Below, one piece after another: positions 23,676 to 52,682 of a DNA stretch of 64,000 nt (position 1 is the stretch's first letter; each line of letters begins with the position of its first letter). A program made the translations under genes and the position numbers. Source of the DNA: Flectonema sp. DT1601 (lineage: Eukaryota); the NCBI GenBank assembly GCA_964019425.1, contig OZ025801.1:1-64000 (forward strand), written 5' to 3'. Below the pieces are notes generated by a model that saw nothing but the letters and a program-made list of their open reading frames with translations, made no database searches and was not told the DNA's origin.

Positions 23676-23678
<3 letters not shown>

Positions 23679-25918: not shown

Positions 25919-25922
<4 letters not shown>

Positions 25923-28698: not shown

Positions 28699-29374
28699 TA
28701 ATTGCGCTTGCCTTCCATATCATGCACCTGACGAATGAAATGTATAGATGAAACTAATTAAACTAATAAAGCAAACTAATGGATCAAACTAGCAAACACA
28801 GAGAAGCTGTCTAAGACAGTTTATTGCGTTGGGGTAGTGGCTGGTGCCCGTTTCGATTCGGCGTGACACCGGCCGGAGGGATGGAGGGTGGGTTTTTCTT
28901 TTACTTTTAGTGGTGAGATGTGACAAAGTGGCAAATAACTGCAAAAGTAAAAGAATAAATTTATTAGAATCCAAATAATTTAAACTATAACAAAAAGACA
29001 GCTTAGCACCAAAGCTCCATGATTTTTTACTGCTAACAGAATTAGCAGCCGAACACCTAGATTTCAAAACCAGATTGCCTACTAAAAGGAGTCCTTTCTC
29101 ATCCTATTATACCTTATCTATCTTTCCTAAACCTGCTTATGCGCAGAAATCCAGCATCTTTTCCTTGGGCAAAAACCTTTCTTACTTTTCTAGTAAGAAA
29201 GTTTTCTGCCTAAATTCTGGTGCATTTTGGATGGCTGCGCAATTACTGAAATAAATTTGCAATAATTGCGCTTGCCTTCCATATCATGCACCTGACGAAT
29301 GAAATGTATAGATGAAACTAATTAAACTAATAAAGCAAACTAATGGATCAAACTAGCAAACACAGAGAAGCTGT

Positions 29375-32300
29375 CTAAGACAGTTTATTGCGTTGGGGTA
29401 GTGGCTGGTGCCCGTTTCGATTCGGCGTGACACCGGCTCCGCCACCCCGTCGCGAGTTGAAGAAGCCCCCGAGCGCAAGTTCGACCTTCGCCCTCGTTTC
29501 CGAGGTGATAGGCTCCCTCGAGGGGATGTCTGCGGGGTTATACTTTGTGCTCACCCATTGAAGTGTGAAAGAACATTTTAAACGAAGTAATTTTTCTATT
29601 GAAACTAAAATAAATGAATTAAGAGAGTGTGAGCGAGCACACATCTTCTTTCTGAAAGATCCGCAGACCGTGGTGTTATCGACCCAGATGGACAAATGGT
29701 CCGCTCTAGTAATAGCGCTCAAAGTCTTCCCTAAAGCATCTGCCTCGAGAATGTTAATATGGCGTTCTTCGCCTAAAGGCCATTGGCCACCTAAGATTTC
29801 CATCTCTGCAGAGTCCCAAACAATCACACCTCCCCAGCCCTTGAGCGAGGCATCGATAAAGACCTCTGCAGTTTTACCGACCTTCTCAACTGGTAAAATA
29901 GTACGTCCCTTCTGGACTTGGTGCATCCACGCGCGCAGCTCAGCTTTCACTGAGTTTGGTAAAGAAATCTTTTCTGAAACAAGAATTGCTCCTCGATTGA
30001 GCTTATTAGTAAGTCTTCGCAGAAACTTCATTGCAAACCAGAACCTACCAGGAGGGACCCCCGATATGGCACTAGCATGCAAAAGCCTGCCCGAAAGAGA
30101 TTCTGCTGCTGCTGCAGTTATGCAGTTCAAATTGCAAGCTTTTATTCTTTTAGTAATCTTTTCACCTAAAGAAACTTCCCTAGTAGGATGTGAGAAAAAT
30201 GCACCTAAAAATTCGTATTCAGTGCCTAAATTAACAGTATCTTGTACCTTCCAGGTTGCGTTGCAAAGCCTGGCAAACTCGTCCATTCTATTCGTGGCCT
30301 CTCGGACCCTTTCTTTATCCCCATAAATCCTTATATTATCTATCCACCAATCAATTTTCACTTGCTTTTCTGCAAATTCTGGCCTAACAAACAAGGGGTC
30401 GCCAGAAACTACTGCAGTAATCGTATTCATAATTTCGGGCGCACAAACGTGCCCCATCGGTAATCTGGTTAGCGCGAACCAGTCCCCCGAGGCATCCTCG
30501 AAGGTAAAAAGAGGTCTCGAAGCCTCTGGAATAAGTATCTGATAAAAACCTGTTTTAAAGTCTCTTAAAGAAGCTACTTCTGAGTGCACTGCACCTAAGT
30601 ACTTCGAGATATGTTGTAAAGGTACAAACGGTTCATATCCAGTCTCGTAAATCTTCTCGTTCTCTTCCTTAGTCCACAAGATAAAGCGCTGCCTATCTCC
30701 TGTCTCCCTTTCCTCGAAAACTGTGAAAGGCACGTTCCTGGACTTAGAAAGTTCCTTCTTAAAAGGTACTGCAATTTTACACCTTACTAACTCCTTAGAG
30801 TGAAGACAGGAAAGCTTTGTTTTTTGAAAAGAATTTTGGGTTTTTTTATCTTTCAGGTGGGGAGTGGTGGAATGGTTGGAGGGAGAACGGGATGAGTGTC
30901 TCGAAGGGTCGTTAGGGAGCGCCGGTTCGAGTCTGGGAGGGGGATTCTTCTCTCTATTTTTACCTAAACTTTTCAGATTTCCTGCATTTTTAAATGTCAA
31001 GTCCCAAGTCTCGTTGAAACGCTCTAGGACGCTCGGAAGCATCCGGTCTTTGATTATTTGAATATCCATCGGCTGTACGATCGCTGCGTGTAGTGGGGCC
31101 GACTTCTCGTAGCTCGTACTCGGTATCCTTGTTGACTTAGCCCTGTGTGTGAACTGAGCCCCCATTTTTCTTATCAGTTTTATAGGAACCTCGTCACTAA
31201 GGATGTCTTCAGAGCCCGAGCGGTGGCGATTGCGTTCCCTCCGTATCTTATTGTTGTATTTGAGATCGCCGACGTCGTCGAGTGCTTTGCAAGGCGGCTT
31301 ATCAGCTCTTCCTTCAGGTCGCATCCGCTCGCGAGGAGCTCTAGTAAGGTGCTTATTGCGCCTCTTTTTATCGAGTGGGCTGTATAGGTTTTCATAATAC
31401 TGTCTTCCTTCCACTCTTTTACTAGTCGTGATGTGTCCCACGGATGTAAGGTTTCGAATTCTTCTATTTCCGTCAGTCCATCCGCTATTTCCCCCACGAG
31501 ATCCCCGACCAACACGGCCCATCTGCTCGGGTAGAACGGATTGCCTCTGCGGCCCTTTGGTGTGGTTGCCCAATCTATTATTATTTCTTCCTTTGAAATT
31601 AGTATAAACTGCTCCCTTGCTAGTCCTGCTGTCTCTCCCCATCGTGCGGCTGCCTTCCAGCTGATGAGCATCGCGACTCTCGTCCTCGTACATTGTTTCA
31701 TCGCCCATCCTACTAAGTGCTCCCTCTTCATGGGGATTGCTTGCTGAGTTGGAATGTTCCCTCCTGCTGCTCTGATTGCTGCTGCTAAGGTTAAAAGTGG
31801 CTTGCTGTCCATTCCCATCTTCCCCATCAGGGCTGACAGGTGCTTTGAATATGTAAGAAGCGCCGATTCCGCTGCTCCCGTTGCCATCACGAAGAGAACA
31901 GCTGTGTCCCCATTGACTTGTAGGTTCTGGCTGCCTGCCCAATTTATCAGTCTCTTCCAGAGCTGCTTCCTGCTGGAAGTGGTCTCCTTTGCCCACATCT
32001 TCTCCATTGTCTCTCCAAGTCTTTCTGTTGCTTGGAGCACTCCCACAGAGTCTTCCTTCTGATTTCTGCTCAGGGCAGAGGGCTCCACTATGTCTAGAAG
32101 GACATTTTGGATCACCCCTGAAGAGTCCCTTCTGGGTTCTTCCTCCACTTTTTCTACTAAGTCTGTCTTTTCCAGATTTTTGAGATTCTTTGAATTTTCC
32201 CTGACTGGACTTAGAGATGAGATACTTTTTGAAATTGCCATCCCAGGCTTTCCCGGGGTATACCTGCGCATTAGACCAATTACTTTGAGATTTCTCTGAA

Positions 32301-32416
32301 TTTTCAGTGTTCCTCTTTCTATTTCTACCTGCTTCTTTACCTTCAATATTTGTAGCAAGTTTCCCGAGGCTCTTGCTCTCCTCACTGGCAGTGTGGGGCT
32401 GGACGTCGCCAGTCAT
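29375..32416 (-). CDS. Reverse transcriptase / RNase H (DIRS group)
   Basis: RT motifs RDFKTGFYQ, RLPMG, WIDN and EFLG. RNase H motifs FIDAS..GWG, HINILEA, VDNTT and NPADIPSR. The first ~410 codons overlap the YR ORF, so the true start is uncertain. Confidence 0.9.
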   Translation of the reverse strand: MTGDVQPHTASEESKSLGKLATNIEGKEAGRNRKRNTENSEKSQSNWSNAQVYPGKAWDGNFKKYLISKSSQGKFKESQKSGKDRLSRKSGGRTQKGLFRGDPKCPSRHSGALCPEQKSEGRLCGSAPSNRKTWRDNGEDVGKGDHFQQEAALEETDKLGRQPEPTSQWGHSCSLRDGNGSSGIGASYIFKAPVSPDGEDGNGQQATFNLSSSNQSSRREHSNSASNPHEEGALSRMGDETMYEDESRDAHQLEGSRTMGRDSRTSKGAVYTNFKGRNNNRLGNHTKGPQRQSVLPEQMGRVGRGSRGGNSGWTDGNRRIRNLTSVGHITTSKRVEGRQYYENLYSPLDKKRRNKHLTRAPRERMRPEGRADKPPCKALDDVGDLKYNNKIRRERNRHRSGSEDILSDEVPIKLIRKMGAQFTHRAKSTRIPSTSYEKSAPLHAAIVQPMDIQIIKDRMLPSVLERFNETWDLTFKNAGNLKSLGKNREKNPPPRLEPALPNDPSRHSSRSPSNHSTTPHLKDKKTQNSFQKTKLSCLHSKELVRCKIAVPFKKELSKSRNVPFTVFEERETGDRQRFILWTKEENEKIYETGYEPFVPLQHISKYLGAVHSEVASLRDFKTGFYQILIPEASRPLFTFEDASGDWFALTRLPMGHVCAPEIMNTITAVVSGDPLFVRPEFAEKQVKIDWWIDNIRIYGDKERVREATNRMDEFARLCNATWKVQDTVNLGTEYEFLGAFFSHPTREVSLGEKITKRIKACNLNCITAAAAESLSGRLLHASAISGVPPGRFWFAMKFLRRLTNKLNRGAILVSEKISLPNSVKAELRAWMHQVQKGRTILPVEKVGKTAEVFIDASLKGWGGVIVWDSAEMEILGGQWPLGEERHINILEADALGKTLSAITRADHLSIWVDNTTVCGSFRKKMCARSHSLNSFILVSIEKLLRLKCSFTLQWVSTKYNPADIPSREPITSETRAKVELALGGFFNSRRGGGAGVTPNRNGHQPLPQRNKLS
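31180..32385 (-). CDS. Tyrosine recombinase
   Basis: Catalytic pattern R (AARWGE), HxxR (HSIKRG), H (AKH) and Y (TIRY). The start is uncertain (the ORF track uses GTG). Confidence 0.9.
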   Translation of the reverse strand: MRRARASGNLLQILKVKKQVEIERGTLKIQRNLKVIGLMRRYTPGKPGMAISKSISSLSPVRENSKNLKNLEKTDLVEKVEEEPRRDSSGVIQNVLLDIVEPSALSRNQKEDSVGVLQATERLGETMEKMWAKETTSSRKQLWKRLINWAGSQNLQVNGDTAVLFVMATGAAESALLTYSKHLSALMGKMGMDSKPLLTLAAAIRAAGGNIPTQQAIPMKREHLVGWAMKQCTRTRVAMLISWKAAARWGETAGLAREQFILISKEEIIIDWATTPKGRRGNPFYPSRWAVLVGDLVGEIADGLTEIEEFETLHPWDTSRLVKEWKEDSIMKTYTAHSIKRGAISTLLELLASGCDLKEELISRLAKHSTTSAISNTTIRYGGNAIATARALKTSLVTRFL

Positions 32417-33477
32417 TGTCCCCCAGCCCTTCCGTTTCCCTGTCCTTGCTGGAACGTCCTACGGAATGGAACATATCCTCCTTTTCTTCCTTTTGTACTT
32501 GCACTGCTTGTAAGGTTTCTGGTAATTGCTTTCTTCTTTGCCATAAGTACTGCATTAGCCTTCTGTAATGGATCATTAGCCTCTGTTTTAAGCTGATTGA
32601 TTAGATCCGACCTCTTTGTCCCATTCATGCAATACATATTCTGAATCTTCAAATCTCTCAACAAGTTATTTCCTAATGAGACTGCATTCTCGTTCTTGTC
32701 CCATCCTGGGATGAATTCCATAGCTAATATGAATCTTTCTAAGTTATTGTAATAATTCTCTAGCAACTCAACCCCTGGTCCAGGGGGAACTCTTCCTACG
32801 AATTTTGATTCCAGTTTAATCAGCAAGATCTCTGTCAGCCGTTGTTCCATGATTGGAATCCAGTCTAAAACACTATTCGTGTCTAATACAGCAGACTGCA
32901 TCTGTGAATCTTCTTCTCCACCTTGCTGAGTACCTTGCTGAGGCGCTGCAGGAAGCACTGGTGGTGGTACAGGCTGTGGCCCCTGCGAGGTCTGCTGATG
33001 TGGTGTATTTTGAAAATGCTGCTGGAGCTGTTGCTGTAATTGTTGCTGAAGCTGCTGCTGAAACTGCAGTTGAGACTGTTGAAACTGCTGGAACTGATCT
33101 TTAATTCCAATTACTTCTTGTTTGAGGATGTTTGTCTCATGCGAACGCACCTCGCTCTCTTGTCGAACTGCAGCATCCCGCTTCTGACTTTCTTCCCTCG
33201 TGCGTGCTATCACGGCAGCTGCGATTCCTGGTTCGATTTCACTCACATTAGGAGCTTCTAATACATCTATTTTGATACATCCTGTTTGTCCCAGTTCCCT
33301 AACAGTTTTACTCATAGCTTGGTTATAAATTCCACCCTTGCCTGCTCTGTCAATCTTCACTATTCCTTCTAATGGTAAATCATTAACGAAGAAGGCCCTA
33401 ACTTTGTGGCCCATTGTGCTTGCTAGAAATCCTTCAATCTCATCATCATTCATGCACTTAATAGTTGCAGTAGTCAT
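32413..33477 (-). CDS. Gag-like protein (354 aa, Gln-rich coiled coil)
   Basis: First ORF of the element. Its ATG (MTTATIKC) lies at the inner edge of repeat A1, 45 nt after a splice acceptor. The gag label is positional only. Confidence 0.75.
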   Translation of the reverse strand: MTTATIKCMNDDEIEGFLASTMGHKVRAFFVNDLPLEGIVKIDRAGKGGIYNQAMSKTVRELGQTGCIKIDVLEAPNVSEIEPGIAAAVIARTREESQKRDAAVRQESEVRSHETNILKQEVIGIKDQFQQFQQSQLQFQQQLQQQLQQQLQQHFQNTPHQQTSQGPQPVPPPVLPAAPQQGTQQGGEEDSQMQSAVLDTNSVLDWIPIMEQRLTEILLIKLESKFVGRVPPGPGVELLENYYNNLERFILAMEFIPGWDKNENAVSLGNNLLRDLKIQNMYCMNGTKRSDLINQLKTEANDPLQKANAVLMAKKKAITRNLTSSASTKGRKGGYVPFRRTFQQGQGNGRAGGQ

Positions 33478-33522
33478 TTTTCTTTTACTTTTAGTGGTGA
33501 GATGTGACAAAGTGGCAAATAA

Positions 33523-33545
33523 CTGCAAAAGTAAAAGAATAAATT
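33523..33545 (-). promoter_or_regulatory. Polypyrimidine tract + CAG splice acceptor for the gag mRNA
   Basis: Minus strand ATTTATTCTTTTACTTTTGCAG|TTATTTGCC. Copy 3 has an SL exon joined at exactly this AG. Confidence 0.8.
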
Positions 33546-33846
33546 TATTAGAATCCAAATAATTTAAACTATAACAAAAAGACAACTTAGCACCAAAACT
33601 CCATGATTTTTTACTGCTAACTGAATTAGCAGCCGAACACCTAGATTTCAAAACCAGATTGCCTACTAAAAGGAGTCCTTTCTCATCCTATTATACCTTA
33701 TCTATCTTTCCTAAACCTGCTTATGCGCAGAAATCCAGCATCTTTTCCTTGGGCAAAAACCTTTCTTACTTTTCTAGTAAGAAAGTTTTCTGCCTAAATT
33801 CTGGTGCATTTTGGATGGCTGCGCAATTACTGAAATAAATTTGCAA

Positions 33847-35060
33847 AAACTGTAGCTTTAGAATCGTTGGTTAACCTTAAAAAGCAGTTACCCCAGGTAA
33901 TTAGAAATTGTGTGGCTTTTAGAACTACCAGCCAGAACTAGCAGAAATGCTTGCTTGCGGGTAGGGAAGTAAGGGAAAAAGCCTGCAAGCACCCGGGGTT
34001 CCCACGTGATCACTCACCGCAGTACTAACCAGGCCTGCTGGTGCTTAACTTCCCAAATCGGGCGGGATGGGGTGCATTCACCAGAGTATGGCCGCAGGCA
34101 ATTGCAGATTTTTTTATTTCTTAGGGGTTTGACCCACCATGAAAAAATTCGCAGAAAAGATTTATTAGCAGAGTATTGCTGGGGCTCGGTCTTTAGCTTT
34201 AACATTAACACAGGAGCGGCGAAAATTACGTCTTTCGGGGGGAAAAGCCAAAAGAAAAATATATTAAATAATATAAATTAAATTTTCTACATAAAAATAG
34301 GATAAGCACGGTAAGTCTCGGTTCATTTTCTCTGCTTGGCAAACAGAGAGTGAACGGGCAATAAAAAAACCCCAAAAGAAGAGAATTCTTCCTAAGAGGT
34401 TGGCTAAATATTCTAAGCAAGCTTAGATATTGAGACTGTACCAATAAAGTACAGAAACTGTAGCTTTAGAATCGTTGGTTAACCTTAAAAAGCAGTTACC
34501 CCAGGTAATTAGAAATTGTGTGGCTTTTAGAACTACCAGCCAGAACTAGCAGAAATGCTTGCTTGCGGGTAGGGAAGTAAGGGAAAAAGCCTGCAAGCAC
34601 CCGGGGTTCCCACGTGATCACTCACCGCAGTACTAACCAGGCCTGCTGGTGCTTAACTTCCCAAATCGGGCGGGATGGGGTGCATTCACCAGAGTATGGC
34701 CGCAGGCAATTGCAGATTTTTTTATTTCTTAGGGGTTTGACCCACCATGAAAAAATTCGCAGAAAAGATTTATTAGCAGAGTATTGCTGGGGCTCGGTCT
34801 TAGCTTTAACATTAACACAGGAGCGGCGAAAATTACGTCTTTCGGAGGGAAAAGCCAAAAGAAAAATATATTAAATAATATAAATTAAATTTTCTACATA
34901 AAAATAGGATAAGCACGGTAAGTCTCGGTTCATTTTCTCTGCTTGGCAAACAGAGGTGAACGGGCAATAAAAAAACCCCAAAAGAAGAGAATTCTTCCTA
35001 AGAGGTTGGCTAAATATTCTAAGCAAGCTTAGATATTGAGACTGTACCAATAAAGTACAG
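33847..35060 (-). repeat. SL + 5S array type A, block 3 (two 5S genes)
   Basis: 5S genes at 33980-34099 and 34588-34707. Intact SL exon at 34442-34480. A few single-base indels. Confidence 0.95.
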
Positions 35061-35736
35061 TAATTGCGCTTGCCTTCCATATCATGCACCTGACGAATGG
35101 AATGTATAGATGAAACTAATTAAACTAATAAAACAAACTAATGGATCAAACTAGCAAACACAGAGAAGCTGTCTAAGACAGTTTATTGCGTTGGGGTAGT
35201 GGCTGGTGCCCGTTTCGATTCGGCGTGACACCGGCCGGAGGGATGGAGGGTGGGTTTTTCTTTTACTTTTAGTGGTGAGATGTGACAAAGTGGCAAATAA
35301 CTGCAAAAGTAAAAGAATAAATTTATTAGAATCCAAATTATTTAAACTATAACAAAAAGACAGCTTAGCACCAAAGCTCCATGATTGTTTACTGCTAACT
35401 GAATTAGCAGCCGAACACCTAGATTTCAAAACCAGATTGCCTACTAAAAGGAGTCCTTTCTCATCCTATTATACCTTATCTATCTTTCCTAAACCTGCTT
35501 ATGCGCAGAAATCCAGCATCTTTTCCTTGGGCAAAAACCTTTCTTACTTTTCTAGTAAGAAAGTTTTCTGCCTAAATTCTGGTGCATTTTGGATGGCTGC
35601 GCAATTACTGAAATAAATTTGCAATAATTGCGCTTGCCTTCCATATCATGCACCTGACGAATGGAATGTATAGATGAAACTAATTAAACTAATAAAACAA
35701 ACTAATGGATCAAACTAGCAAACACAGAGAAGCTGT

Positions 35737-38700
35737 CTAAGACAGTTTATTGCGTTGGGGTAGTGGCTGGTGCCCGTTTCGATTCGGCGTGACACCGGCT
35801 CCGCCACCCCGTCGCGAGTTGAAGAAGCCCCCGAGCGCAAGTTCGACCTTCGCCCTCGTCTCCGAGGTGATAGGCTCCCTCGAGGGGATGTCTGCGGGGT
35901 TATACTTTGTGCTCACCCATTGAAGTGTGAAAGAACATTTTAAACGAAGTAATTTTTCTATTGAAACTAAAATAAATGAATTAAGAGAGTGTGAGCGAGC
36001 ACACATCTTCTTTCTGAACGATCCGCAGACCGTGGTGTTATCGACCCAGATGGACAAATGGTCCGCTCTAGTAATAGCGCTCAAAGTCTTCCCTAAGGCA
36101 TCTGCCTCGAGAATGTTAATATGGCGTTCTTCGCCTAAAGGCCATTGGCCACCTAAGATTTCCATCTCTGCAGAGTCCCAAACAATCACACCTCCCCAGC
36201 CCTTGAGCGAGGCATCGATAAAGACCTCTGCAGTTTTACCGACCTTCTCATCTGGTAAAATAGTACGTCCCTTCTGGACTTGGTGCATCCACGCGCGCAG
36301 CTCAGCTTTCACTGAGTTTGGTAAAGAAATCTTTTCCGAAACAAGAATTGCTCCTCGATTGAGCTTATTAGTAAGTCTTCGCAGAAACTTCATTGCAAAC
36401 CAGAACCTACCAGGAGGGACCCCCGATATGGCACTAGCATGCAAAAGCCTGCCCGAAAGAGATTCTGCTGCTGCTGCAGTTATGCAGTTCAAATTGCAAG
36501 CTTTTATTCTTTTAGTAATCTTTTCACCTAAAGAAACTTCCCTAGTAGGATGTGAGAAAAATGCACCTAAAAATTCGTATTCAGTGCCTAAATTAACAGT
36601 ATCTTGTACCTTCCAGGTTGCGTTGCAAAGCCTGGCAAACTCGTCCATTCTATTCGTGGCCTCTCGGACCCTTTCTTTATCCCCATAAATCCTTATATTA
36701 TCTATCCACCAATCAATTTTCACTTGCTTTTCTGCAAATTCTGGCCTAACAAACAAGGGGTCGCCAGAAACTACTGCAGTAATCGTATTCATAATTTCGG
36801 GCGCACAAACGTGCCCCATCGGTAATCTGGTTAGCGCGAACCAGTCCCCCGAGGCATCCTCGAAGGTAAAAAGAGGTCTCGAAGCCTCTGGAATAAGTAT
36901 CTGATAAAAACCTGTTTTAAAGTCTCTTAAAGAAGCTACTTCTGAGTGCACTGCACCTAAGTACTTCGAGATATGTTGTAAAGGTACAAACGGTTCATAT
37001 CCAGTCTCGTAAATCTTCTCGTTCTCTTCCTTAGTCCACAAGATAAAGCGCTGCCTATCTCCTGTCTCCCTTTCCTCGAAAACTGTGAAAGGCACGTTCC
37101 TGGACTTAGAAAGTTCCTTCTTAAAAGGTACTGCAATTTTACACCTTACTAACTCCTTAGAGTGAAGACAGGAAAGCTTTGTTTTTTGAAAAGAATTTTG
37201 GGTTTTTTTATCTTTCAGGTGGGGAGTGGTGGAATGGTTGGAGGGAGAACGGGATGAGTGTCTCGAAGGGTCGTTAGGGAGCGCCGGTTCGAGTCTGGGA
37301 GGGGGATTCTTCTCTCTATTTTTACCTAAACTTTTCAGATTTCCTGCATTTTTAAATGTCAAGTCCCAAGTCTCGTTGAAACGCTCTAGGACGCTCGGAA
37401 GCATCCGGTCTTTGATTATTTGAATATCCATCGGCTGTACGATCGCTGCGTGTAATGGGGCCGACTTCTCGTAGCTCGTACTCGGTATCCTTGTTGACTT
37501 AGCCCTGTGTGTGAACTGAGCCCCCATTCTTCTTATCAGTTTTATAGGAACTTCGTCACTAAGGATGTCTTCAGGGCCCGAGCGGTGGCGATTGCGTTCC
37601 CTCCGTATCTTATTGTTGTATTTGAGATCGCCGACGTCGTCGAGTGCTTTGCAAGGCGGCTTATCAGCTCTTCCTTCAGGTCGCATCCGCTCGCGAGGAG
37701 CTCTAGTAAGGTGCTTATTGCGCCTCTTTTTATCGAGTGGGCTGTATAGGTTTTCATAATACTGTCTTCCTTCCACTCTTTTACTAGTCGTGATGTGTCC
37801 CACGGATGTAAGGTTTCGAATTCTTCTATTTCCGTCAGTCCATCCGCTATTTCCTCCACGAGATCCCCGACCAACACGGCCCATCTGCTCGGGTAGAACG
37901 GATTGCCTCTGCGGCCCTTTGGTGTGGTTGCCCAATCTATTATTATTTCTTCCTTTGAAATTAGTATAAACTGCTCCCTTGCTAGTCCTGCTGTCTCTCC
38001 CCATCGTGCGGCTGCCTTCCAGCTGATGAGCATCGCGACTCTCGTCCTCGTACATTGTTTCATCGCCCATCCTACTAAGTGCTCCCTCTTCATGGGGATT
38101 GCTTGCTGAGTTGGAATGTTCCCTCCTGCTGCTCTGATTGCTGCTGCTAAGGTTAAAAGTGGCTTGCTGTCCATTCCCATCTTCCCCATCAGGGCTGACA
38201 GGTGCTTTGAATATGTAAGAAGCGCCGATTCCGCTGCTCCCGTTGCCATCACGAAGAGAACAGCTGTGTCCCCATTGACTTGTAGGTTCTGGCTGCCTGC
38301 CCAATTTATCAGTCTCTTCCAGAGCTGCTTCCTGCTGGAAGTGGTCTCCTTTGCCCACATCTTCTCCATTGTCTCTCCAAGTCTTTCTGTTGCTTGGAGC
38401 ACTCCCACAGAGTCTTCCTTCTGATTTCTGCTCAGGGCAGAGGGCTCCACTATGTCTAGAAGGACATTTTGGATCACCCCTGAAGAGTCCCTTCTGGGTT
38501 CTTCCTCCACTTTTTCTACTAAGTCTGTCTTTTCCAGATTTTTGAGATTCTTTGAATTTTCCCTGACTGGACTTAGAGATGAGATACTTTTTGAAATTGC
38601 CATCCCAGGCTTTCCCGGGGTATACATGCGCATTAGACCAATTACTTTGAGATTTCTCTGAATTTTCAGTGTTCCTCTTTCTATTTCTACCTGCTTCTTT

Positions 38701-38778
38701 ACCTTCAATATTTGTAGCAAGTTTCCCGAGGCTCTTGCTCTCCTCACTGGCAGTGTAGGGCTGGACGTCGCCAGTCAT
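35737..38778 (-). CDS. RT/RNase H, copy 2
   Basis: Intact and near-identical to 29375-32416. Confidence 0.9.
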   Translation of the reverse strand: MTGDVQPYTASEESKSLGKLATNIEGKEAGRNRKRNTENSEKSQSNWSNAHVYPGKAWDGNFKKYLISKSSQGKFKESQKSGKDRLSRKSGGRTQKGLFRGDPKCPSRHSGALCPEQKSEGRLCGSAPSNRKTWRDNGEDVGKGDHFQQEAALEETDKLGRQPEPTSQWGHSCSLRDGNGSSGIGASYIFKAPVSPDGEDGNGQQATFNLSSSNQSSRREHSNSASNPHEEGALSRMGDETMYEDESRDAHQLEGSRTMGRDSRTSKGAVYTNFKGRNNNRLGNHTKGPQRQSVLPEQMGRVGRGSRGGNSGWTDGNRRIRNLTSVGHITTSKRVEGRQYYENLYSPLDKKRRNKHLTRAPRERMRPEGRADKPPCKALDDVGDLKYNNKIRRERNRHRSGPEDILSDEVPIKLIRRMGAQFTHRAKSTRIPSTSYEKSAPLHAAIVQPMDIQIIKDRMLPSVLERFNETWDLTFKNAGNLKSLGKNREKNPPPRLEPALPNDPSRHSSRSPSNHSTTPHLKDKKTQNSFQKTKLSCLHSKELVRCKIAVPFKKELSKSRNVPFTVFEERETGDRQRFILWTKEENEKIYETGYEPFVPLQHISKYLGAVHSEVASLRDFKTGFYQILIPEASRPLFTFEDASGDWFALTRLPMGHVCAPEIMNTITAVVSGDPLFVRPEFAEKQVKIDWWIDNIRIYGDKERVREATNRMDEFARLCNATWKVQDTVNLGTEYEFLGAFFSHPTREVSLGEKITKRIKACNLNCITAAAAESLSGRLLHASAISGVPPGRFWFAMKFLRRLTNKLNRGAILVSEKISLPNSVKAELRAWMHQVQKGRTILPDEKVGKTAEVFIDASLKGWGGVIVWDSAEMEILGGQWPLGEERHINILEADALGKTLSAITRADHLSIWVDNTTVCGSFRKKMCARSHSLNSFILVSIEKLLRLKCSFTLQWVSTKYNPADIPSREPITSETRAKVELALGGFFNSRRGGGAGVTPNRNGHQPLPQRNKLS
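37542..38747 (-). CDS. Tyrosine recombinase, copy 2
   Basis: R-HxxR-H-Y residues intact. Confidence 0.9.
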   Translation of the reverse strand: MRRARASGNLLQILKVKKQVEIERGTLKIQRNLKVIGLMRMYTPGKPGMAISKSISSLSPVRENSKNLKNLEKTDLVEKVEEEPRRDSSGVIQNVLLDIVEPSALSRNQKEDSVGVLQATERLGETMEKMWAKETTSSRKQLWKRLINWAGSQNLQVNGDTAVLFVMATGAAESALLTYSKHLSALMGKMGMDSKPLLTLAAAIRAAGGNIPTQQAIPMKREHLVGWAMKQCTRTRVAMLISWKAAARWGETAGLAREQFILISKEEIIIDWATTPKGRRGNPFYPSRWAVLVGDLVEEIADGLTEIEEFETLHPWDTSRLVKEWKEDSIMKTYTAHSIKRGAISTLLELLASGCDLKEELISRLAKHSTTSAISNTTIRYGGNAIATARALKTSLVTKFL

Positions 38779-39839: not shown

Positions 39840-40208
39840 TTTTCTTTTACTTTTAGTGGTGAGATGTGACAAAGTGGCAAATAACTGCAAAAGTAAAAGA
39901 ATAAATTTATTAGAATCCAAATTATTTAAACTATAACAAAAAGACAGCTTAGCACCAAAGCTCCATGATTGTTTACTGCTAACTGAATTAGCAGCCGAAC
40001 ACCTAGATTTCAAAACCAGATTGCCTACTAAAAGGAGTCCTTTCTCATCCTATTATACCTTATCTATCTTTCCTAAACCTGCTTATGCGCAGAAATCCAG
40101 CATCTTTTCCTTGGGCAAAAACCTTTCTTACTTTTCTAGTAAGAAAGTTTTCTGCCTAAATTCTGGTGCATTTTGGATGGCTGCGCAATTACTGAAATAA
40201 ATTTGCAA

Positions 40209-42632: not shown

Positions 42633-43308
42633 TAATTGCGCTCGCCTTCCATATCATGCACCTGACGAATGAAATGTATAGATGAAACTAATTAAACTAA
42701 TAAAACAAACTAATGGATCAAACTAGCAAACACAGAGAAGCTGTCTAAGACAGTTTATTGCGTTGGGGTAGTGGCTGGTGCCCGTTTCGATTCGGCGTGA
42801 CACCGGCCGGAGGGATGGAGGGTGGGTTTTTCTTTTACTTTTAGTGGTGAGATGTGACAAAGTGGCAAATAACTGCAAAAGTAAAAGAATAAATTTATTA
42901 GAATCCAAATTATTTAAACTATAACAAAAAGACAACTTAGCACCAAAACTCCATGATTTTTTACTGCTAACTGAATTAGCAGCCGAACGCCTAGATTTCA
43001 AAACCAGATTGCCTACTAAAAGGAGTCCCTTCCCATCCTATTATACCTTATCTATCTTTCCTAAACCTGCTTATGCGCAGAAATCCAGCATCTTTTCCTT
43101 GGGCAAAAACCTTTCTTACTTTTCTAGTAAGAAAGTTTTCTGCCTAAATTCTGGTGCATCTTGGATGGCTGCGCAATTACTGAAATAAATTTGCAATAAT
43201 TGCGCTCGCCTTCCATATCATGCACCTGACGAATGAAATGTATAGATGAAACTAATTAAACTAATAAAACAAACTAATGGATCAAACTAGCAAACACAGA
43301 GAAGCTGT

Positions 43309-46300
43309 CTAAGACAGTTTATTGCGTTGGGGTAGTGGCTGGTGCCCGTTTCGATTCGGCGTGACACCGGCTCCGCCACCCCGTCGCGAGTTGAAGAAGC
43401 CCCCGAGCGCAAGTTCGACCTTCGCCCTCGTCTCCGAGGTGATAGGCTCCCTCGAGGGGATGTCTGCGGGGTTATACTTTGTGCTCACCCATTGAAGTGT
43501 GAAAGAACATTTTAAACGAAGTAATTTTTCTATTGAAACTAAAATAAATGAATTAAGAGAGTGTGAGCGAGCACACATCTTCTTTCTGAACGATCCGCAG
43601 ACCGTGGTGTTATCGACCCAGATGGACAAATGGTCCGCTCTAGTAATAGCGCTCAAAGTCTTCCCTAAGGCATCTGCCTCGAGAATGTTAATATGGCGTT
43701 CTTCGCCTAAAGGCCATTGGCCACCTAAGATTTCCATCTCTGCAGAGTCCCAAACAATCACACCTCCCCAGCCCTTGAGCGAGGCATCGATAAAGACCTC
43801 TGCAGTTTTACCGACCTTCTCATCTGGTAAGATAGTACGTCCCTTCTGGACTTGGTGCATCCACGCGCGCAGCTCAGCTTTCACTGAGTTTGGTAAAGAA
43901 ATCTTTTCCGAAACAAGAATTGCTCCTCGATTGAGCTTATTAGTAAGTCTTCGCAGAAACTTCATTGCAAACCAGAACCTACCAGGAGGGACTCCTGATA
44001 TGGCACTAGCATGCAAAAGCCTGCCCGAAAGAGATTCTGCTGCTGCTGCAGTTATGCAGTTCAAATTGCAAGCTTTTATTCTTTTAGTAATCTTTTCACC
44101 TAAAGAAACTTCCCTAGTAGGATGTGAGAAAAATGCACCTAAAAATTCGTATTCAGTGCCTAAATTAACAGTATCTTGTACCTTCCAGGTTGCGTTGCAA
44201 AGCCTGGCAAACTCGTCCATTCTATTCGTGGCCTCTCGGACCCTTTCTTTATCCCCATAAATCCTTATATTATCTATCCACCAATCAATTTTCACTTGCT
44301 TTTCTGCAGATTCTGGCCTAACAAACAAGGGGTCGCCAGAAACTACTGCAGTAATCGTATTCATAATTTCGGGCGCACAAACGTGCCCCATCGGTAATCT
44401 GGTTAGCGCGAACCAGTCCCCCGAGGCATCCTCGAAGGTAAAAAGAGGTCTCGAAGCCTCTGGAATAAGTATCTGATAAAAACCTGTTTTAAAGTCTCTT
44501 AAAGAAGCTACTTCTGAGTGCACTGCACCTAAGTACTTCGAGATATGTTGTAAAGGTACAAACGGTTCATATCCAGTCTCGTAAATCTTCTCGTTCTCTT
44601 CCTTAGTCCACAAGATAAAGCGCTGCCTATCTCCTGTCTCCCTTTCCTCGAAAACTGTGAAAGGCACGTTCCTGGACTTAGAAAGTTCCTTCTTAAAAGG
44701 TACTGCAATTTTACACCTTACTAACTCCTTAGAGTGAAGACAGGAAAGCTTTGTTTTTTGAAAAGAATTTTGGGTTTTTTTATCTTTCAGGTGGGGAGTG
44801 GTGGAATGGTTGGAGGGAGAACGGGATGAGTGTCTCGAAGGGTCGTTAGGGAGCGCCGGTTCGAGTCTGGGAGGGGGATTCTTCTCTCTATTTTTACCTA
44901 AACTTTTCAGATTTCCTGCATTTTTAAATGTCAAGTCCCAAGTCTCGTTGAAACGCTCTAGGACGCTCGGAAGCATCTGGTCTTTGATTATTTGAATATC
45001 CATCGGCTGTACGATCGCTGCGTGTAATGGGGCCGACTTCTCGTAGCTCGTACTCGGTATCCTTGTTGACTTAGCCCTGTGTGTGAACTGAGCCCCCATT
45101 TTTCTTATCAGTTTTATAGGAACTTCGTCACTAAGGATGTCTTCAGGGCCCGAGCGGTGGCGATTGCGTTCCCTCCGTATCTTATTGTTGTATTTGAGAT
45201 CGCCGACGTCGTCGAGTGCTTTGCAAGGCGGCTTATCAGCTCTTCCTTCAGGTCGCATCCGCTCGCGAGGAGCTCTAGTAAGGTGCTTATTGCGCCTCTT
45301 TTTATCGAGTGGGCTGTATAGGTTTTCATAATACTGTCTTCCTTCCACTCTTTTACTAGTCGTGATGTGTCCCACGGATGTAAGGTTTCGAATTCTTCTA
45401 TTTCCGTCAGTCCATCCGCTATTTCCTCCACGAGATCCCCGACCAACACGGCCCATCTGCTCGGGTAGAACGGATTGCCTCTGCGGCCCTTTGGTGTGGT
45501 TGCCCAATCTATTATTATTTCTTCCTTTGAAATTAGTATAAACTGCTCCCTTGCTAGTCCTGCTGTCTCTCCCCATCGTGCGGCTGCCTTCCAGCTGATG
45601 AGCATCGCGACTCTCGTCCTCGTACATTGTTTCATCGCCCATCCTACTAAGTGCTCCCTCTTCATGGGGATTGCTTGCTGAGTTGGAATGTTCCCTCCTG
45701 CTGCTCTGATTGCTGCTGCTAAGGTTAAAAGTGGCTTGCTGTCCATTCCCATCTTCCCCATCAGGGCTGACAGGTGCTTTGAATATGTAAGAAGCGCCGA
45801 TTCCGCTGCTCCCGTTGCCATCACGAAGAGAACAGCTGTGTCCCCATTGACTTGTAGGTTCTGGCTGCCTGCCCAATTTATCAGTCTCTTCCAGAGCTGC
45901 TTCCTGCTGGAAGTGGTCTCCTTTGCCCACATCTTCTCCATTGTCTCTCCAAGTCTTTCTGTTGCTTGGAGCACTCCCACAGAGTCTTCCTTCTGATTTC
46001 TGCTCAGGGCAGAGGGCTCCACTATGTCTAGAAGGACATTTTGGATCACCCCTGAAGAGTCCCTTCTGGGTTCTTCCTCCACTTTTTCTACTAAGTCTGT
46101 CTTTTCCAGATTTTTGAGATTCTTTGAATTTTCCCTGACTAGACTTAGAGATGAGATACTTTTTGAAATTGCCATCCCAGGCTTTCCCGGGGTATACCTG
46201 CGCATTAGACCAATTACTTTGAGATTTCTCTGAATTTTCAGTGTTCCTCTTTCTATTTCTACCTGCTTCTTTACCTTCAATATTTGTAGCAAGTTTCCCA

Positions 46301-46350
46301 AGGCTCTTGCTCTCCTCACTGGCAGTGTAGGGCTGGACGTCGCCAGTCAT
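43309..46350 (-). CDS. RT/RNase H, copy 3
   Basis: Intact and near-identical to the other copies. Confidence 0.9.
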   Translation of the reverse strand: MTGDVQPYTASEESKSLGKLATNIEGKEAGRNRKRNTENSEKSQSNWSNAQVYPGKAWDGNFKKYLISKSSQGKFKESQKSGKDRLSRKSGGRTQKGLFRGDPKCPSRHSGALCPEQKSEGRLCGSAPSNRKTWRDNGEDVGKGDHFQQEAALEETDKLGRQPEPTSQWGHSCSLRDGNGSSGIGASYIFKAPVSPDGEDGNGQQATFNLSSSNQSSRREHSNSASNPHEEGALSRMGDETMYEDESRDAHQLEGSRTMGRDSRTSKGAVYTNFKGRNNNRLGNHTKGPQRQSVLPEQMGRVGRGSRGGNSGWTDGNRRIRNLTSVGHITTSKRVEGRQYYENLYSPLDKKRRNKHLTRAPRERMRPEGRADKPPCKALDDVGDLKYNNKIRRERNRHRSGPEDILSDEVPIKLIRKMGAQFTHRAKSTRIPSTSYEKSAPLHAAIVQPMDIQIIKDQMLPSVLERFNETWDLTFKNAGNLKSLGKNREKNPPPRLEPALPNDPSRHSSRSPSNHSTTPHLKDKKTQNSFQKTKLSCLHSKELVRCKIAVPFKKELSKSRNVPFTVFEERETGDRQRFILWTKEENEKIYETGYEPFVPLQHISKYLGAVHSEVASLRDFKTGFYQILIPEASRPLFTFEDASGDWFALTRLPMGHVCAPEIMNTITAVVSGDPLFVRPESAEKQVKIDWWIDNIRIYGDKERVREATNRMDEFARLCNATWKVQDTVNLGTEYEFLGAFFSHPTREVSLGEKITKRIKACNLNCITAAAAESLSGRLLHASAISGVPPGRFWFAMKFLRRLTNKLNRGAILVSEKISLPNSVKAELRAWMHQVQKGRTILPDEKVGKTAEVFIDASLKGWGGVIVWDSAEMEILGGQWPLGEERHINILEADALGKTLSAITRADHLSIWVDNTTVCGSFRKKMCARSHSLNSFILVSIEKLLRLKCSFTLQWVSTKYNPADIPSREPITSETRAKVELALGGFFNSRRGGGAGVTPNRNGHQPLPQRNKLS
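45114..46319 (-). CDS. Tyrosine recombinase, copy 3
   Basis: Catalytic residues intact. Confidence 0.9.
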   Translation of the reverse strand: MRRARALGNLLQILKVKKQVEIERGTLKIQRNLKVIGLMRRYTPGKPGMAISKSISSLSLVRENSKNLKNLEKTDLVEKVEEEPRRDSSGVIQNVLLDIVEPSALSRNQKEDSVGVLQATERLGETMEKMWAKETTSSRKQLWKRLINWAGSQNLQVNGDTAVLFVMATGAAESALLTYSKHLSALMGKMGMDSKPLLTLAAAIRAAGGNIPTQQAIPMKREHLVGWAMKQCTRTRVAMLISWKAAARWGETAGLAREQFILISKEEIIIDWATTPKGRRGNPFYPSRWAVLVGDLVEEIADGLTEIEEFETLHPWDTSRLVKEWKEDSIMKTYTAHSIKRGAISTLLELLASGCDLKEELISRLAKHSTTSAISNTTIRYGGNAIATARALKTSLVTKFL

Positions 46351-47393
46351 TGTCCCCCAGCCCTTCCGTTTCCCTGTCCTCGCTGGAACGTCCTACGGAA
46401 TGGAACATATCCTCCTTTTCTTCCTTTTGTACTTGCACTGCTTGTAAGGTTTCTGGTAATTGCTTTCTTCTTTGCCATAAGTACTGCATTAGCCTTCTGT
46501 AATGGATCATTAGCCTCTGTTTTAAGCTGATTGATTAGATCCGACCTCTTTGTCCCATTCATGCAATACATATTCTGAATCTTCAAATCTCTCAACAAGT
46601 TATTTCCTAATGAGACTGCATTCTCGTTCTTGTCCCATCCTGGGATGAATTCCATAGCTAATATGAATCTTTCTAAGTTATTGTAATAATTCTCTAGCAA
46701 CTCAACCCCTGGTCCAGGGGGAACTCTTCCTACGAATTTTGATTCCAGTTTAATCAGCAAGATCTCTGTCAGCCGTTGTTCCATGATTGGAATCCAGTCT
46801 AAAACACTATTCGTGTCTAATACAGCAGACTGCATCTGTGAATCTTCTTCTCCACCTTGATGAGTACCTTGCTGAGGCGCTGCAGGAAGCACTGGTGGTG
46901 GTACAGGCTGTGGCCCCTGTGAGGTCTGCTGATGTGGTGTATTTTGAAAATGCTGCTGGAGCTGTTGCTGTAATTGTTGCTGAAGCTGCTGCTGAAACTG
47001 CAGTTGAGACTGTTGAAACTGCTGGAACTGATCTTTAATTCCAATTACTTCTTGTTTGAGGATGTTTGTCTCATGCGAACGCACCTCGCTCTCTTGTCGA
47101 ACTGCAGCATCCCGCTTCTGACTTTCTTCCCTCGTGCGTGCTATCACGGCAGCTGCGATTCCTGGTTCGATTTCACTCACATTAGGAGCTTCACATCCTG
47201 TTTGTCCCAGTTCCCTAACAGTTTTACTCATAGCTTGGTTATAAATTCCACCCTTGCCTGCTCTGTCAATCTTCACTATTCCTTCTAATGGTAAATCATT
47301 AACGAAGAAGGCCCTAACTTTGTGGCCCATTGTGCTTGCTAGAAATCCTTCAATCTCATCATCATTCATGCACTTAATAGTTGCAGTAGTCAT
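46347..47393 (-). CDS. Gag-like protein, copy 3 (lacks IKIDVL)
   Basis: GQTGC|EAPN here versus GQTGCIKIDVLEAPN in copies 1 and 2. Confidence 0.75.
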   Translation of the reverse strand: MTTATIKCMNDDEIEGFLASTMGHKVRAFFVNDLPLEGIVKIDRAGKGGIYNQAMSKTVRELGQTGCEAPNVSEIEPGIAAAVIARTREESQKRDAAVRQESEVRSHETNILKQEVIGIKDQFQQFQQSQLQFQQQLQQQLQQQLQQHFQNTPHQQTSQGPQPVPPPVLPAAPQQGTHQGGEEDSQMQSAVLDTNSVLDWIPIMEQRLTEILLIKLESKFVGRVPPGPGVELLENYYNNLERFILAMEFIPGWDKNENAVSLGNNLLRDLKIQNMYCMNGTKRSDLINQLKTEANDPLQKANAVLMAKKKAITRNLTSSASTKGRKGGYVPFRRTFQRGQGNGRAGGQ

Positions 47394-47935
47394 TTTTCTT
47401 TTACTTTTAGTGGTGAGATGTGACAAAGTGGCAAATAACAATAAAGTACAGAAACTGTAGCTTTAGAATCGTTGGTTAACCTTAAAAAGGTGCCTACTAA
47501 AAGGAGTCCTTTCTCATCCTATTATACCTTATCTATCTTTCCTAAACCTGCTCATGCACAGAAATCCAGCATCTTTTCCTTGGGCAAAAACCTTTCTTAC
47601 TTTTCTAGTAAGAAAGTTTTCTGCCTAAATTCTGGTGCATTTTGGATGGCTGCGCAATTACTGAAATAAATTTGCAAAAACTGTAGCTTTAGAATCGTTG
47701 GTTAACCTTAAAAAGTAGTTACCCCAGGTGATTAGAAATTACGTGGCTTTTAGAACTACCAGCCAGTACTAACAGAAATGCTTGCTTGCGGGTAGGGAAG
47801 TAAGGGAAAAAGCCTGCAAGCACCCGGGGTTCCCACGTGATCACTCACCGCAGTACTAACCAGGCCTGCTGGTGCTTAACTTCCCAAATCGGGCGGGATG
47901 GGGTGCATTCACCAGAGTATGGCCGCAGGCAATAG

Positions 47936-47946
<11 letters not shown>

Positions 47947-47970
<24 letters not shown>

Positions 47971-48155: not shown

Positions 48156-48414
48156 AGATTTTTTTATTTTATTTCTTGGGAGTTTCATGGGGCAACCCAC
48201 CAGGAAAAAATTTACAGAAAAGTTTTATTTAGCAGCTGGGGCTGGGTCTTAGCTTTAACGTTAACGCAGGAGCGGCGAAAATTACACCTTTCGGGGAAGA
48301 AAGCCAAAAAAAAAAAAAATATATTAAATATTTTTACGTAAAAATAAGAAACACGGTAAGTCTTTGTACATTTTCTTCTGCTTGGCAAACAGAGGTGCAC
48401 GGACAATAAAAAAA

Positions 48415-51700: not shown

Positions 51701-52117
51701 GCCTGCTGGTGCTTAACTTCCCAAATCGGGCGGGATGGGGTGCATTCACCAGAGTATGGCCGCAGGCAATAGCAGATTTTTTTATTTTATTTCTTGGGAG
51801 TTTCATGGGGCAACCCACCAGGAAAAAATTTACAGAAAAGTTTTATTTAGCAGCTGGGGCTGGGTCTTAGCTTTAACGTTAACGCAGGAGCGGCGAAAAT
51901 TACACCTTTCGGGGAAGAAAGCCAAAAAAAAAAAAAATATATTAAATATTTTTACGTAAAAATAAGAAACACGGTAAGTCTTTGTACATTTTCTTCTGCT
52001 TGGCAAACAGAGGTGCACGGACAATAAAAAAACCCCAAAGGAAGAAAATTCTTCCTAAGGGGTTAGCTAAATATTCCAAGCAAGCTCGGATGTTGAGACT
52101 GTACCAATAAAGTACAG

Positions 52118-52682
52118 TAATTGCGCTTGCCTTCCATATCATGCACCTGACGAATGAAATGTATAGATGAAACTAATTAAACTAATAAAACAAACTAATG
52201 GATCAAACTAGCAAACACAGAGAAGCTGTCTAAGACAGTTTATTGCGTTGGGGTAGTGGCTGGTGCCCGTTTCGATTCGGCGTGACACCGGCCGGAGGGA
52301 TGGAGGGTGGGTTTTTCTTTTACTTTTAGTGGTGAGATGTGACAAAGTGGCAAATAACTGCAAAAGTAAAAGAATAAATTTATTAGAATCCAAATTATTT
52401 AAACTATAACAAAAAGACAACTTAGCACCAAAACTCCATGATTTTTTACTGCTAACTGAATTAGCAGCCGAACACCTAGATTTCAAAACCAGATTGCCTA
52501 CTAAAAGGAGTCCTTTCTCATCCTATTATACCTTATCTATCTTTCCTAAACCTGCTTATGCGCAGAAATCCAGCATCTTTTCCTTGGGCAAAAACCTTTC
52601 TTACTTTTCTAGTAAGAAAGTTTTTCTGCCTAAATTCTGGTGCATTCTGGATGGCTGCGCAATTACTGAAATAAATTTGCAA
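52118..52682 (-). mobile_element. Solo split-repeat derivative (A-linker-B, 565 bp) of the YR retrotransposon in an SL exon
   Basis: Same two junctions as the full elements, no internal ORFs. This unit is 603+565 bp. Confidence 0.95.

Follow-up and report, generated by a model that had tools for sequence, protein, structure and literature searches.

The 64-kb window (the whole stretch of DNA analysed, 64,000 nucleotides) carries a minus-strand array of spliced-leader (SL) RNA genes with a 39-nt exon; all features described below lie on the minus strand. The window contains 41 copies of exon nt 1-26 and 42 of nt 27-39, and the two halves are joined in 37 cases, comprising 36 intact SL genes and one exon lying within an element (copy 3). 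Array units occur as a 606-bp variant (12 intact genes) and a 603-bp variant (24 intact genes) that are 92% identical over aligned columns, and element insertions are present in both. Every SL unit also encodes a 5S rRNA gene (Rfam RF00001, 98.7 bits), which an earlier note on this DNA did not mention. In one unit with an empty target, the intact exon is at 28080..28118, where an inverted repeat (ACAG-TTT-CTGT) surrounds the insertion point, and the 5S rRNA gene is at 28226..28345 (RF00001). The host is probably a diplonemid and not a kinetoplastid.

The inserted element is 5,148 bp long and encodes gag, a tyrosine recombinase (YR) and reverse transcriptase with RNase H (RT/RH), in that order and with YR and RT/RH overlapping. 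Its ends are near-identical split direct repeats, A1…B1-A2-B2, with A of 370 bp, B of 175 bp and a 19-bp linker. This gene order and repeat structure, proposed in the earlier note, were confirmed by the ORF map and repeat comparison. In copy 1 (28699..33846, full length, in an SL gene of the 606-bp variant), repeat A1 (33477..33846, 370 bp) contains a polypyrimidine-CAG splice acceptor that ends at 33523, 46 nt upstream of the gag ATG. The gag-like ORF (32413..33477, 354 aa) has no significant Pfam match; its stop codon, which overlaps the RT/RH start ATG, lies in the same frame as the YR ORF. The YR ORF (31180..32412) is 410 aa from stop to stop, and the RT/RH ORF (29375..32458) is 1,013 aa from its first Met, its first ~430 codons overlapping YR. 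Repeats B1 (29263..29437, 175 bp) and A2 (28893..29262, 370 bp) follow, and B2 (28699..28873, 175 bp) lies after the 19-bp linker. YR thus precedes RT/RH, and does not follow it as in Ngaro elements. The ends are split direct repeats, not the inverted terminal repeats with an internal complementary region of DIRS1-like elements; complementarity between the B end and the A start is short and imperfect.

Pfam alone barely detects the element proteins, and PF00589 is carried by one relative. The YR catalytic residues (R257, K286, H346, R350, H377 and Y390) are intact and invariant in 11 of 11 alignment rows. The predicted YR fold (pLDDT 77, from a 12-row alignment; the single-sequence fold gave pLDDT 34) matches Cre (E 7e-7) and the Tn1549 integrase at 12-15% identity, and the recombinase is accordingly predicted to be Cre-like. 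The RT boxes are RDF and WIDN and the RNase H motifs are DAS/E/DN. The earlier note considered both sets of catalytic motifs intact. This holds for the R-K-H-R-H-Y set of YR, but in the RT the second aspartate of the canonical motif is missing, the box being WIDN and not YxDD. The non-YxDD box is a family-wide trait (DN in 27, DG in 4 and DD in none of 31 aligned proteins). Among the 31 relatives, at E up to 0.5, RVT_1 is matched by 17 and RT_RNaseH by 23, with weak matches for the window's own protein. The hepadnaviral-polymerase domain PF00336 is found in the RNase H of 10 of 31 at E up to 0.5 (best E 0.009, under the cut-off), and none of the 31 matches Peptidase_A17, the TATE-type RNase H.

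The element breaks the SL exon between nt 26 and 27 at all four left and all five right junctions of the window. The left SL halves abut the A end of the element at 33872, 40234, 47703 and 52708, and the right halves follow the B end at 13117, 28698, 35060, 42632 and 52117. In the junction alignment of copy 1, exon nt 1-26 occupy 33847..33872, and nt 27-39, continuing into the SL intron, occupy 28686..28698. All window junctions are sense to the SL gene and lack a target-site duplication (TSD), so the split position, orientation, absence of TSD and occurrence in both array variants given in the earlier note all stand. Left junctions all retain the target TTT, and right junctions all carry the element TTA. 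Junction flanks reproduce the local array variant exactly, including bases diagnostic of the variant that lie 13 nt ahead of the exon and ~13 nt inside the intron. This match is seen in both variants, which differ by 8%, whereas element copies differ by ~0.5%.

The insertions placed at 28699, 35061, 42633 and 52118, with a stub at 13118, are real, but these positions mark the 3′ ends of the elements and not their starts, as the earlier note had it. Only two copies are plain and full length, copy 1 and copy 2 (35061..40208, 606-bp variant on both sides), and they are spaced one SL unit apart. Copy 3 (42633..47677, 5,045 bp) is a composite with the 603-bp variant at its left end and the 606-bp variant at its right, a rearranged A1, and an 18-bp in-frame deletion in gag. 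Reading this gap as an intron was rejected, as it is not GT-AG. Copy 3 also contains a whole 39-nt SL exon, preceded by 12 nt of upstream SL flank (47439..47489) and fused exactly to the A1 splice acceptor; this joint of SL exon and gag acceptor is a spliced-RNA junction preserved in DNA. The gag, YR and RT/RH ORFs are open in all three long copies. The remaining insertions are a SIRE-like solo A-linker-B unit of 565 bp without ORFs (52118..52682, 603-bp variant on both sides) and the stub (13118..13173), which consists of the last 56 bp of B2 and its right junction. Because the stub lies inside a 4,298-bp duplication (8876-13173 = 24457-28754), it is not an independent insertion.

The internal B1/A2 junction lies under an imperfect hairpin (29219..29292; z −5.8, the best fold among the element's 338 windows) with the inverted repeat GCAA-TTA-TTGC at the joint. 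The SL target and the B/A joint are both inverted repeats around a 3-bp core, both fit RCAR-TTW-YTGY, and they share further flank likeness (AAGC before, TTTATT after). On the minus strand of the window this core motif occurs 50 times, and 49 occurrences are SL exons or element junctions; the single non-SL match, at 16178, is unoccupied.

The paired repeats of the long copies vary at eight sites. Five are private to one copy and common to both its repeats (B103 and A287 in copy 1, B136 and A239 in copy 2, B165 in copy 3), three are discordant, all between A1 and A2 of copy 1, and none sorts as first versus second repeat. The chance of the five within-copy pairings is 0.0009. In copy 2, A1 equals A2 and B1 equals B2, with one private SNP per pair. 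Repeat identity is expected at insertion under the Ngaro/PAT model, as given in the available part of PMC6681497. Gene conversion between the repeats, which lie 564 bp from each other, is another possible source of within-copy identity.

Identical junctions are present in contigs from runs of four other studies, the right junction in X1 and X4 and the left in X2, X4 and X7, although X1 yields no left-junction contig. The SL units of these samples have different lengths. Their junctions may be inherited rather than new insertions. No loose ends at either element terminus were found in any of the four runs. In X1, depth is 5.0 for the right-junction contig, 4.3 for the body and 4.7 for the linker. 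The junction contigs carry only 27-30 letters on the SL side, below the 31-letter bridging rule, and because depths are low, rare off-target junctions would be dropped.

We interpret the element as a VIPER-like YR retrotransposon targeting SL nt 26/27, probably inserted repeatedly and recently by its own recombinase (probability about 0.78). Because SNPs pair within copies and flanks match the local variant, the copies probably represent separate, recent retrotranspositions and not one amplified insertion. The alternative, in which one or two chance insertions in SL genes were multiplied by unequal crossing-over while gene conversion homogenised copies and repeats, draws on array-level events that do exist (the 4.3-kb duplication with its stub, the composite at the variant border and the solo A-B unit), on the one-unit spacing of copies 1 and 2, and on possible inheritance by descent in the other samples. 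We regard it as very unlikely, since the five copy-private SNPs match up within copies, with no SNP following repeat position, variant-specific bases flank insertions on the exon and intron sides in both variants, the target resembles the element's own junction, and the ORFs are open in all three long copies. The earlier note had named a single amplified insertion as one outcome that would count against it, and the SNPs and flanks disfavour that outcome.

Somewhat less improbable, but still unlikely, is a recombinase that prefers the short motif RCAR-TTW-YTGY anywhere, with SL arrays as the densest and most tolerated sites and many copies elsewhere. The 11-bp core alone would be frequent in a large genome, as the match at 16178 illustrates; VIPER is dispersed in T. 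cruzi (PMC5814959, available part), and sister families of the element look dispersed. However, loose termini are absent from all four runs, the right junction in X1 is as deep as the body, and for an on-target share of at most one third P is ~0.02 in X1 (a rough value that takes depth as read count). Contig distribution is a weak point in favour of SL targeting. In a 28-member protein cluster of 98-99.9% identity, 11 of the 15 members listed are near full length, and these 15 crowd onto 8 short contigs (median 40 kb), whereas three sister clusters have about one member per contig (medians 396-639 kb). Clumping counts for little, however, because a fourth sister cluster, P0157, shows some of it too, with 15 on 12 contigs (median 98 kb). 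One listed member of the 28-member cluster stands alone on a 432-kb contig, which again suits the short-motif preference. A route in which SL-tagged cDNA recombines homologously with SL genes, in place of the recombinase, finds a parallel in copy 3, where the SL-spliced form stands in DNA beside SL upstream flank. It is scarcely credible as the driver of insertion, as it yields a full 39-nt exon joined to A325 and cannot produce what all other junctions show, a split between nt 26 and 27 in which the exon remainder and the intron stand at the opposite end.

The recombinase-driven reading suggests the following cycle. The promoter upstream of the SL gene would drive transcription of an inserted copy, whose RNA would be SL-spliced at the A1 acceptor to give a gag mRNA. 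Reverse transcription, with strand transfers between A1/A2 and B1/B2 rebuilding the ends, could produce a circle whose junction equals B1/A2. The putative Cre-like recombinase would pair this junction with an SL exon and exchange strands over the 3-bp core, with one mismatch; later array-level recombination may produce solo A-B units, composites and duplicated stubs. A more specific version is possible but doubtful: a hairpin-folded single-stranded cDNA circle would enter the palindromic SL exon through a single strand exchange that replication resolves, as in integrons, and in this way the element would gain the SL promoter and terminator and channel itself into SL splicing. The TTT at left and TTA at right junctions would then follow from the single strand exchange. 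If true, the element would be a retrotransposon whose integrase is genuinely site-specific, of the attP x attB kind, and directed at an essential RNA gene. Cre-loxP and the Tn1549 integrase share the predicted fold and inverted-repeat arms around a core, but arms and core here look much shorter, and a circle made by reverse transcription would be the substrate. Mismatched cores are tolerated by integrases of the Tn916 family.

The element shares with VIPER/SIRE of Trypanosoma cruzi (the VIPER-like group; PMC6681497, available part) gag followed by overlapping YR and RT/RH, and A1…B1-A2-B2 repeats. VIPER likewise lacks a TSD (PMC12278014, available part), and the short A2-linker-B2 form of SIRE resembles the solo A-linker-B unit. 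The RNase H of VIPER is close to hepadnaviral ones, and the RNase H here has a weak PF00336 likeness. VIPER differs in its host (T. cruzi against a likely diplonemid) and in being described as dispersed among other retroelements (PMC5814959, available part), with no SL target in the text covered, whereas all window junctions of the present element lie in SL exons. TATE of Leishmania braziliensis has the same architecture and is also site-specific, occupying a single position within a repeat target, the telomeric GGG^TTA (PMC6681497, available part). Site-specific insertion as such is therefore already known, but the target here is an essential RNA gene and all window junctions lie in the SL exon, none in telomeric hexamers. 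TATE also has a reported Peptidase_A17-type RNase H (0 of 31 proteins here) and a head-to-tail tandem arrangement that the present copies lack. Ngaro/PAT and DIRS1-like elements are also YR retrotransposons; the split-repeat structure recurs in Ngaro, and the TTT trinucleotide at DIRS-like ends (PMC9210276, available parts) echoes the 3-bp TTW core. YR follows RT/RH in Ngaro (in part from PMC9210276), and the available parts gave no fixed gene target for these groups. In contrast, the present element has YR before RT/RH, no inverted terminal repeats or internal complementary region, and no methyltransferase or hydrolase ORF.

The CRE clade (SLACS, CZAR, CRE1/2) likewise occupies one fixed position in SL RNA genes, but its members are non-LTR elements with a restriction-like endonuclease, a poly(A) tail and a TSD, inserted between nt 11 and 12 (PMC5814959 and PMC12278014, available parts). 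None of these traits is found in the present element, which has YR, split repeats, no TSD and insertion between nt 26 and 27. Because the integration enzymes are unrelated, SL targeting by the two is convergent. A recently active VIPER/TATE-type element with SL targeting independent of SLACS/CZAR/CRE, as first suggested from the sequence, is supported by SNPs, flanks and other-study junctions. Our literature search found SL genes as targets of non-LTR elements only and no YR element described in them, consistent with the earlier claim of no prior description. The element would represent a second, independent route to the SL safe harbour, one that relies on an unrelated enzyme. As far as we found in the literature, it would also be the first VIPER-like element to be characterised from a host that is not a kinetoplastid. 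Integration of YR retrotransposons is poorly understood; to our knowledge the circle-plus-recombinase integration of the DIRS order has never been reconstituted in vitro. Unlike dispersed YR retrotransposons, this element comes with a precisely defined empty site, precise left and right junctions, an internal likeness of the expected circle junction, and proteins that are young and intact. The exact SL target is a defined site for studying integration and makes the proposed model directly testable in vitro. It also points to a possible tool for site-specific integration at the SL sequence, which is conserved in euglenozoans.

An exact look-up of five window proteins found none in the searched collection, so the ENA cluster may derive from another assembly. 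A JGI metagenome scan for SL nt 1-26 with any base but C next turned up 10 loci, none with a YR/RT element, and a viral-contig scan with the RT alignment gave 28 pattern matches and no relatives. The atlas search returned generic phage-integrase clusters only. No named VIPER/TATE protein appeared among database matches or the 10 YR representatives looked up, and no searchable motifs were found in the Ribeiro 2019 supplements. The D. papillatum genome-paper supplement gave no match to 'spliced leader'; its main supplementary text, probably outside this search, may bear on SL-array elements. A GTDB scan with the YR alignment found relatives in 2 of 119 stretches, both stray eukaryote-like contigs in bacterial bins. 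One, L011, has gag-YR-RT but is uninformative on target, because it lacks terminal repeats and no SL was seen. A quick tree (53 of 68 rows) contains unnamed and D. papillatum rows only.

The minus-strand tandem array of the window is built of units containing a 39-nt spliced leader (SL) exon, the SL intron and a 5S rRNA gene (identified with Rfam). It contains 36 uninterrupted SL genes, 12 of a 606-bp variant and 24 of a 603-bp variant (92% identity over aligned columns). The SL exon matches 37/39 bases of one euglenozoan SL in the accessible list of PMC3795323. Among 57 reverse transcriptase (RT) relatives of the element inserted in this array, 10 are NCBI-named proteins, and 10/10 are from Diplonema papillatum. 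Because of these relatives and the 37/39 match, whose partner we take to be the Diplonema leader, the host is likely a diplonemid. An 8.9-kb G-rich short-unit satellite (1-8883) adjoins a duplicated segment. Another tandem repeat, diverged and with a period of ~140 bp, lies at ~21030-23680.

Every element junction in the window falls at SL 26|27, in sense orientation and without target duplication, as the earlier note had claimed; SL nt 1-26 halves run into the element (n = 4) and SL nt 27-39 plus intron halves follow it (n = 5). Copies 1 (33846-28699, minus strand) and 2 (40208-35061, minus strand), each 5,148 bp, have the proposed gag-YR-RT/RH order (YR, tyrosine recombinase) with A1-B1-A2-B2 repeats, laid out as A1 (370 bp), gag, YR, RT/RH, B1 (175 bp), A2, a 19-bp linker and B2. 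The copy claimed at 52118 is indeed element sequence at the SL site but is not full length, consisting of A-linker-B alone (52682-52118, minus strand), the layout reported for T. cruzi SIRE in the available part of PMC6681497. The duplicated stub proposed at 13118, the end of a B2, lies within a 4,298-bp duplication.

Copy 3 (47677-42633, minus strand) has a rearranged A1 and an internal SL exon. It begins with A1 nt 1-187, followed by a single additional base, 12 nt from the upstream flank of SL and the whole SL exon, after which the element resumes exactly past the CAG acceptor at A324 of repeat A. As this join lies exactly at the SL donor position and a polypyrimidine-AG acceptor, we infer a splicing product fixed in DNA, the element RNA having probably been SL-spliced and copied back. 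The A1 piece shows 5 differences from A2 of the same copy, and its flank is 603-type whereas that of the right end is 606-type, so that copy 3 is most simply read as two insertions fused through a deletion.

Could a single insertion have been amplified with the array? The flanks of the interrupted genes, compared over 150 nt on the upstream side and 200 nt on the downstream side, are identical to the local array variant, and the element copies differ from one another by ~0.5%. The paired repeats of the long copies have eight variable sites. At five of these the variant is confined to one copy and found in both repeats of that copy (chance probability of the five pairings, 0.0009); at three, all in copy 1, A1 and A2 disagree; none separates first from second repeats. 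The five private SNPs and the local flanks disfavor one amplified insertion. Within-copy identity is the reset expected if reverse transcription rebuilds each copy, as in the model summarized in the accessible text of PMC6681497; gene conversion within a copy is an alternative source of the same pattern.

Outside the window, part of the window sequence is present in nine runs of seven studies. We compared five of the nine, using the solo A-linker-B unit as reference for junction contigs. The right junction is covered by contigs in X1 and X4 and the left junction by contigs in X2, X4 and X7, with only 27-30 letters on the SL side, below the 31-letter bridging rule, in runs of unstated type; no left-junction contig was seen in X1. 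The SL units of these runs (on contigs of 476 letters in X1, 425 in X4 and 284 in X7) differ in length from those of the window; shared descent is a possible source of the junctions. No loose ends were found at either element terminus in 4/4 runs, at a low depth that hides rare flanks. Depth in X1 at the right junction (5.0) matched that in the body (4.3) and the linker (4.7); with depths read as counts, the rough P for at most one third of copies being on target is 0.018. SL repeat units in X1, X3, X4 and X7 have lengths other than 603/606 bp, and some are too short to contain a 5S gene; whether SL and 5S genes are linked seems to vary between close relatives.

The protein cluster of the element has 28 members, and the 15 listed, 98-99.9% identical to the window copies, lie on 8 contigs (median 40 kb), 11 of the 15 sharing a contig and one standing alone on a 432-kb contig. 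Three sister clusters have nearly one member per contig (contig medians 396, 413 and 639 kb), with a fourth falling in between (median 98 kb); this comparison covers how members are distributed over contigs. Searching metagenomes for split SL exons gave 10 loci, with the element in 0/10.

The empty target (ACAG-TTT-CTGT) is an inverted repeat round a 3-bp core, and so is the B1|A2 joint inside the element (GCAA-TTA-TTGC), which should mirror the circle junction. Both fit RCAR-TTW-YTGY, with common flanks AAGC before and TTTATT after. The minus strand of the window has 50 matches to this pattern, 49/50 of them SL exons or element junctions, and the plus strand has 0. The B1|A2 joint lies within an imperfect hairpin (DNA z -5.8, 0 of 200 shuffles), the best-folding of 338 90-nt windows. 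All left junctions retain TTT and all right junctions TTA (chance ~0.06 by hand arithmetic over five independent units), a hint that strands may be exchanged only once, or that the cut after the core may be flush.

We consider it probable (about 0.78) that the element inserts site-specifically and repeatedly through SL transcription, SL splicing, an RT-made circle and YR recombination. The SL promoter would putatively drive transcription of the inserted element, its RNA would be SL-spliced at A325, RT would copy the RNA and repeat-guided transfers would yield a putative circle, whose B|A junction YR would recombine with the SL exon. The circle step comes from the YR-retrotransposon literature. 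The fixed site, private SNP pairing and junctions in other runs support the inference in the earlier note of an SL-targeting YR retroelement, and the defined pair of sites (SL exon, B|A junction) makes the integration step testable.

The catalytic motifs of YR and RT/RH had been called intact. This holds for YR, whose residues R257, K286, H346, R350, H377 and Y390 are invariant in 11/11 aligned rows; the second RT box reads WIDN, which is family-typical (of 31 proteins, 27 have DN, 4 have DG and 0 have DD), and RT activity is presumed. A YR structure model (12-row alignment, pLDDT 77) matches Cre (E 7e-7), Tn1549 integrase and XerA. The YR family is large and mostly unnamed, since a profile search with an E cut-off of 0.001 retrieved 1,014 representatives. 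RT/RH gave weak Pfam matches. A weak hepadnaviral-type RNase H signal occurs in 10/31 proteins and Peptidase_A17 has no Pfam match in the 31; by the criteria in the accessible text of PMC6681497 these signals would lean toward VIPER. In a quick RT tree of 53 of 68 rows, from which 15 partial ones had been removed, the element clusters with four sister proteins of 57-60% identity (support 100), nested in a radiation to which D. papillatum proteins also belong; no named VIPER or TATE sequence is among the rows, and VIPER-like membership is proposed from architecture. At 32413-32416 (minus strand) a gag stop codon, in frame with YR, overlaps the RT ATG and may allow control by read-through or re-initiation. 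Two loci (L011, L012) carry related YR elements on contigs that were assigned to bacterial MAGs but are likely eukaryotic contaminants.

Among the matches listed from the literature searched, with Repbase and subscription journals outside reach, none describes a YR element inserted in SL genes; this includes the available portions of PMC3783388, PMC13465315, PMC13393146, PMC8061765 and PMC9210276, and PMC5146736 gave no keyword match; a keyword search for "spliced leader" gave 0 matches in the accessible text and supplements of PMC6681497. In the sections available, SL targeting is listed for non-LTR elements (PMC8869645), and TATE-like and SLACS-like ORFs are reported in D. papillatum with rigorous TE analysis deferred (PMC10161547); PMC12278014, likewise partial, is a further comparison source on known SL-associated and VIPER-type elements. 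CZAR/SLACS insert at SL nt 11|12 (PMC5814959, in part), whereas the element here inserts at 26|27; TATE is also site-specific but sits at one position of telomeric hexamers (PMC6681497, in part), not in SL exons. VIPER-like architecture and a precedent for site-specificity (TATE) are thus already known; the SL target, new for the group in the literature searched, is reached independently of the CRE clade.

Non-LTR elements are also nested in the array, since a 2,046-aa open frame (13151-19291, plus strand) starts within the B2 stub; it fuses two RTs in frame, a partial LINE RT and then another RT that bears motifs of zinc finger and restriction-like-endonuclease type. The 3' part of an RNase H-bearing LINE with a poly(A) end (24026-25919, plus strand; partial duplicate 8876-10338) abuts the first bases of an array 5S rRNA gene, to which it runs in the opposite orientation, and is possibly a 5S-targeting insertion. 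A poly(A)-ended, SINE-like insert of ~215 bp (47940-48156, minus strand) lies at an A-rich site just upstream of the 5S gene in a 603-bp unit.

Copies of the SL exon also occur in giant-virus DNA outside the window, at L013-L028 (on two IMG/VR records, of which one is named as a giant-virus MAG) and at L001-L010. They match 39/39 at 4 of 18 sites (range 25-39). An AAAA[ACT]TGA promoter-like motif lies 26-27 nt ahead at 18/18 sites (background 1%), an ORF begins 73-103 nt past the copy at 18/18, and GT follows directly at 0/18. This arrangement points to giant viruses of diplonemid-type hosts that would carry hard-wired leaders. Neighbors of the viral copies include Rpb1, topoisomerase II and a VP39-like cap protein, and one locus (L008) has a PCIF1-like domain.
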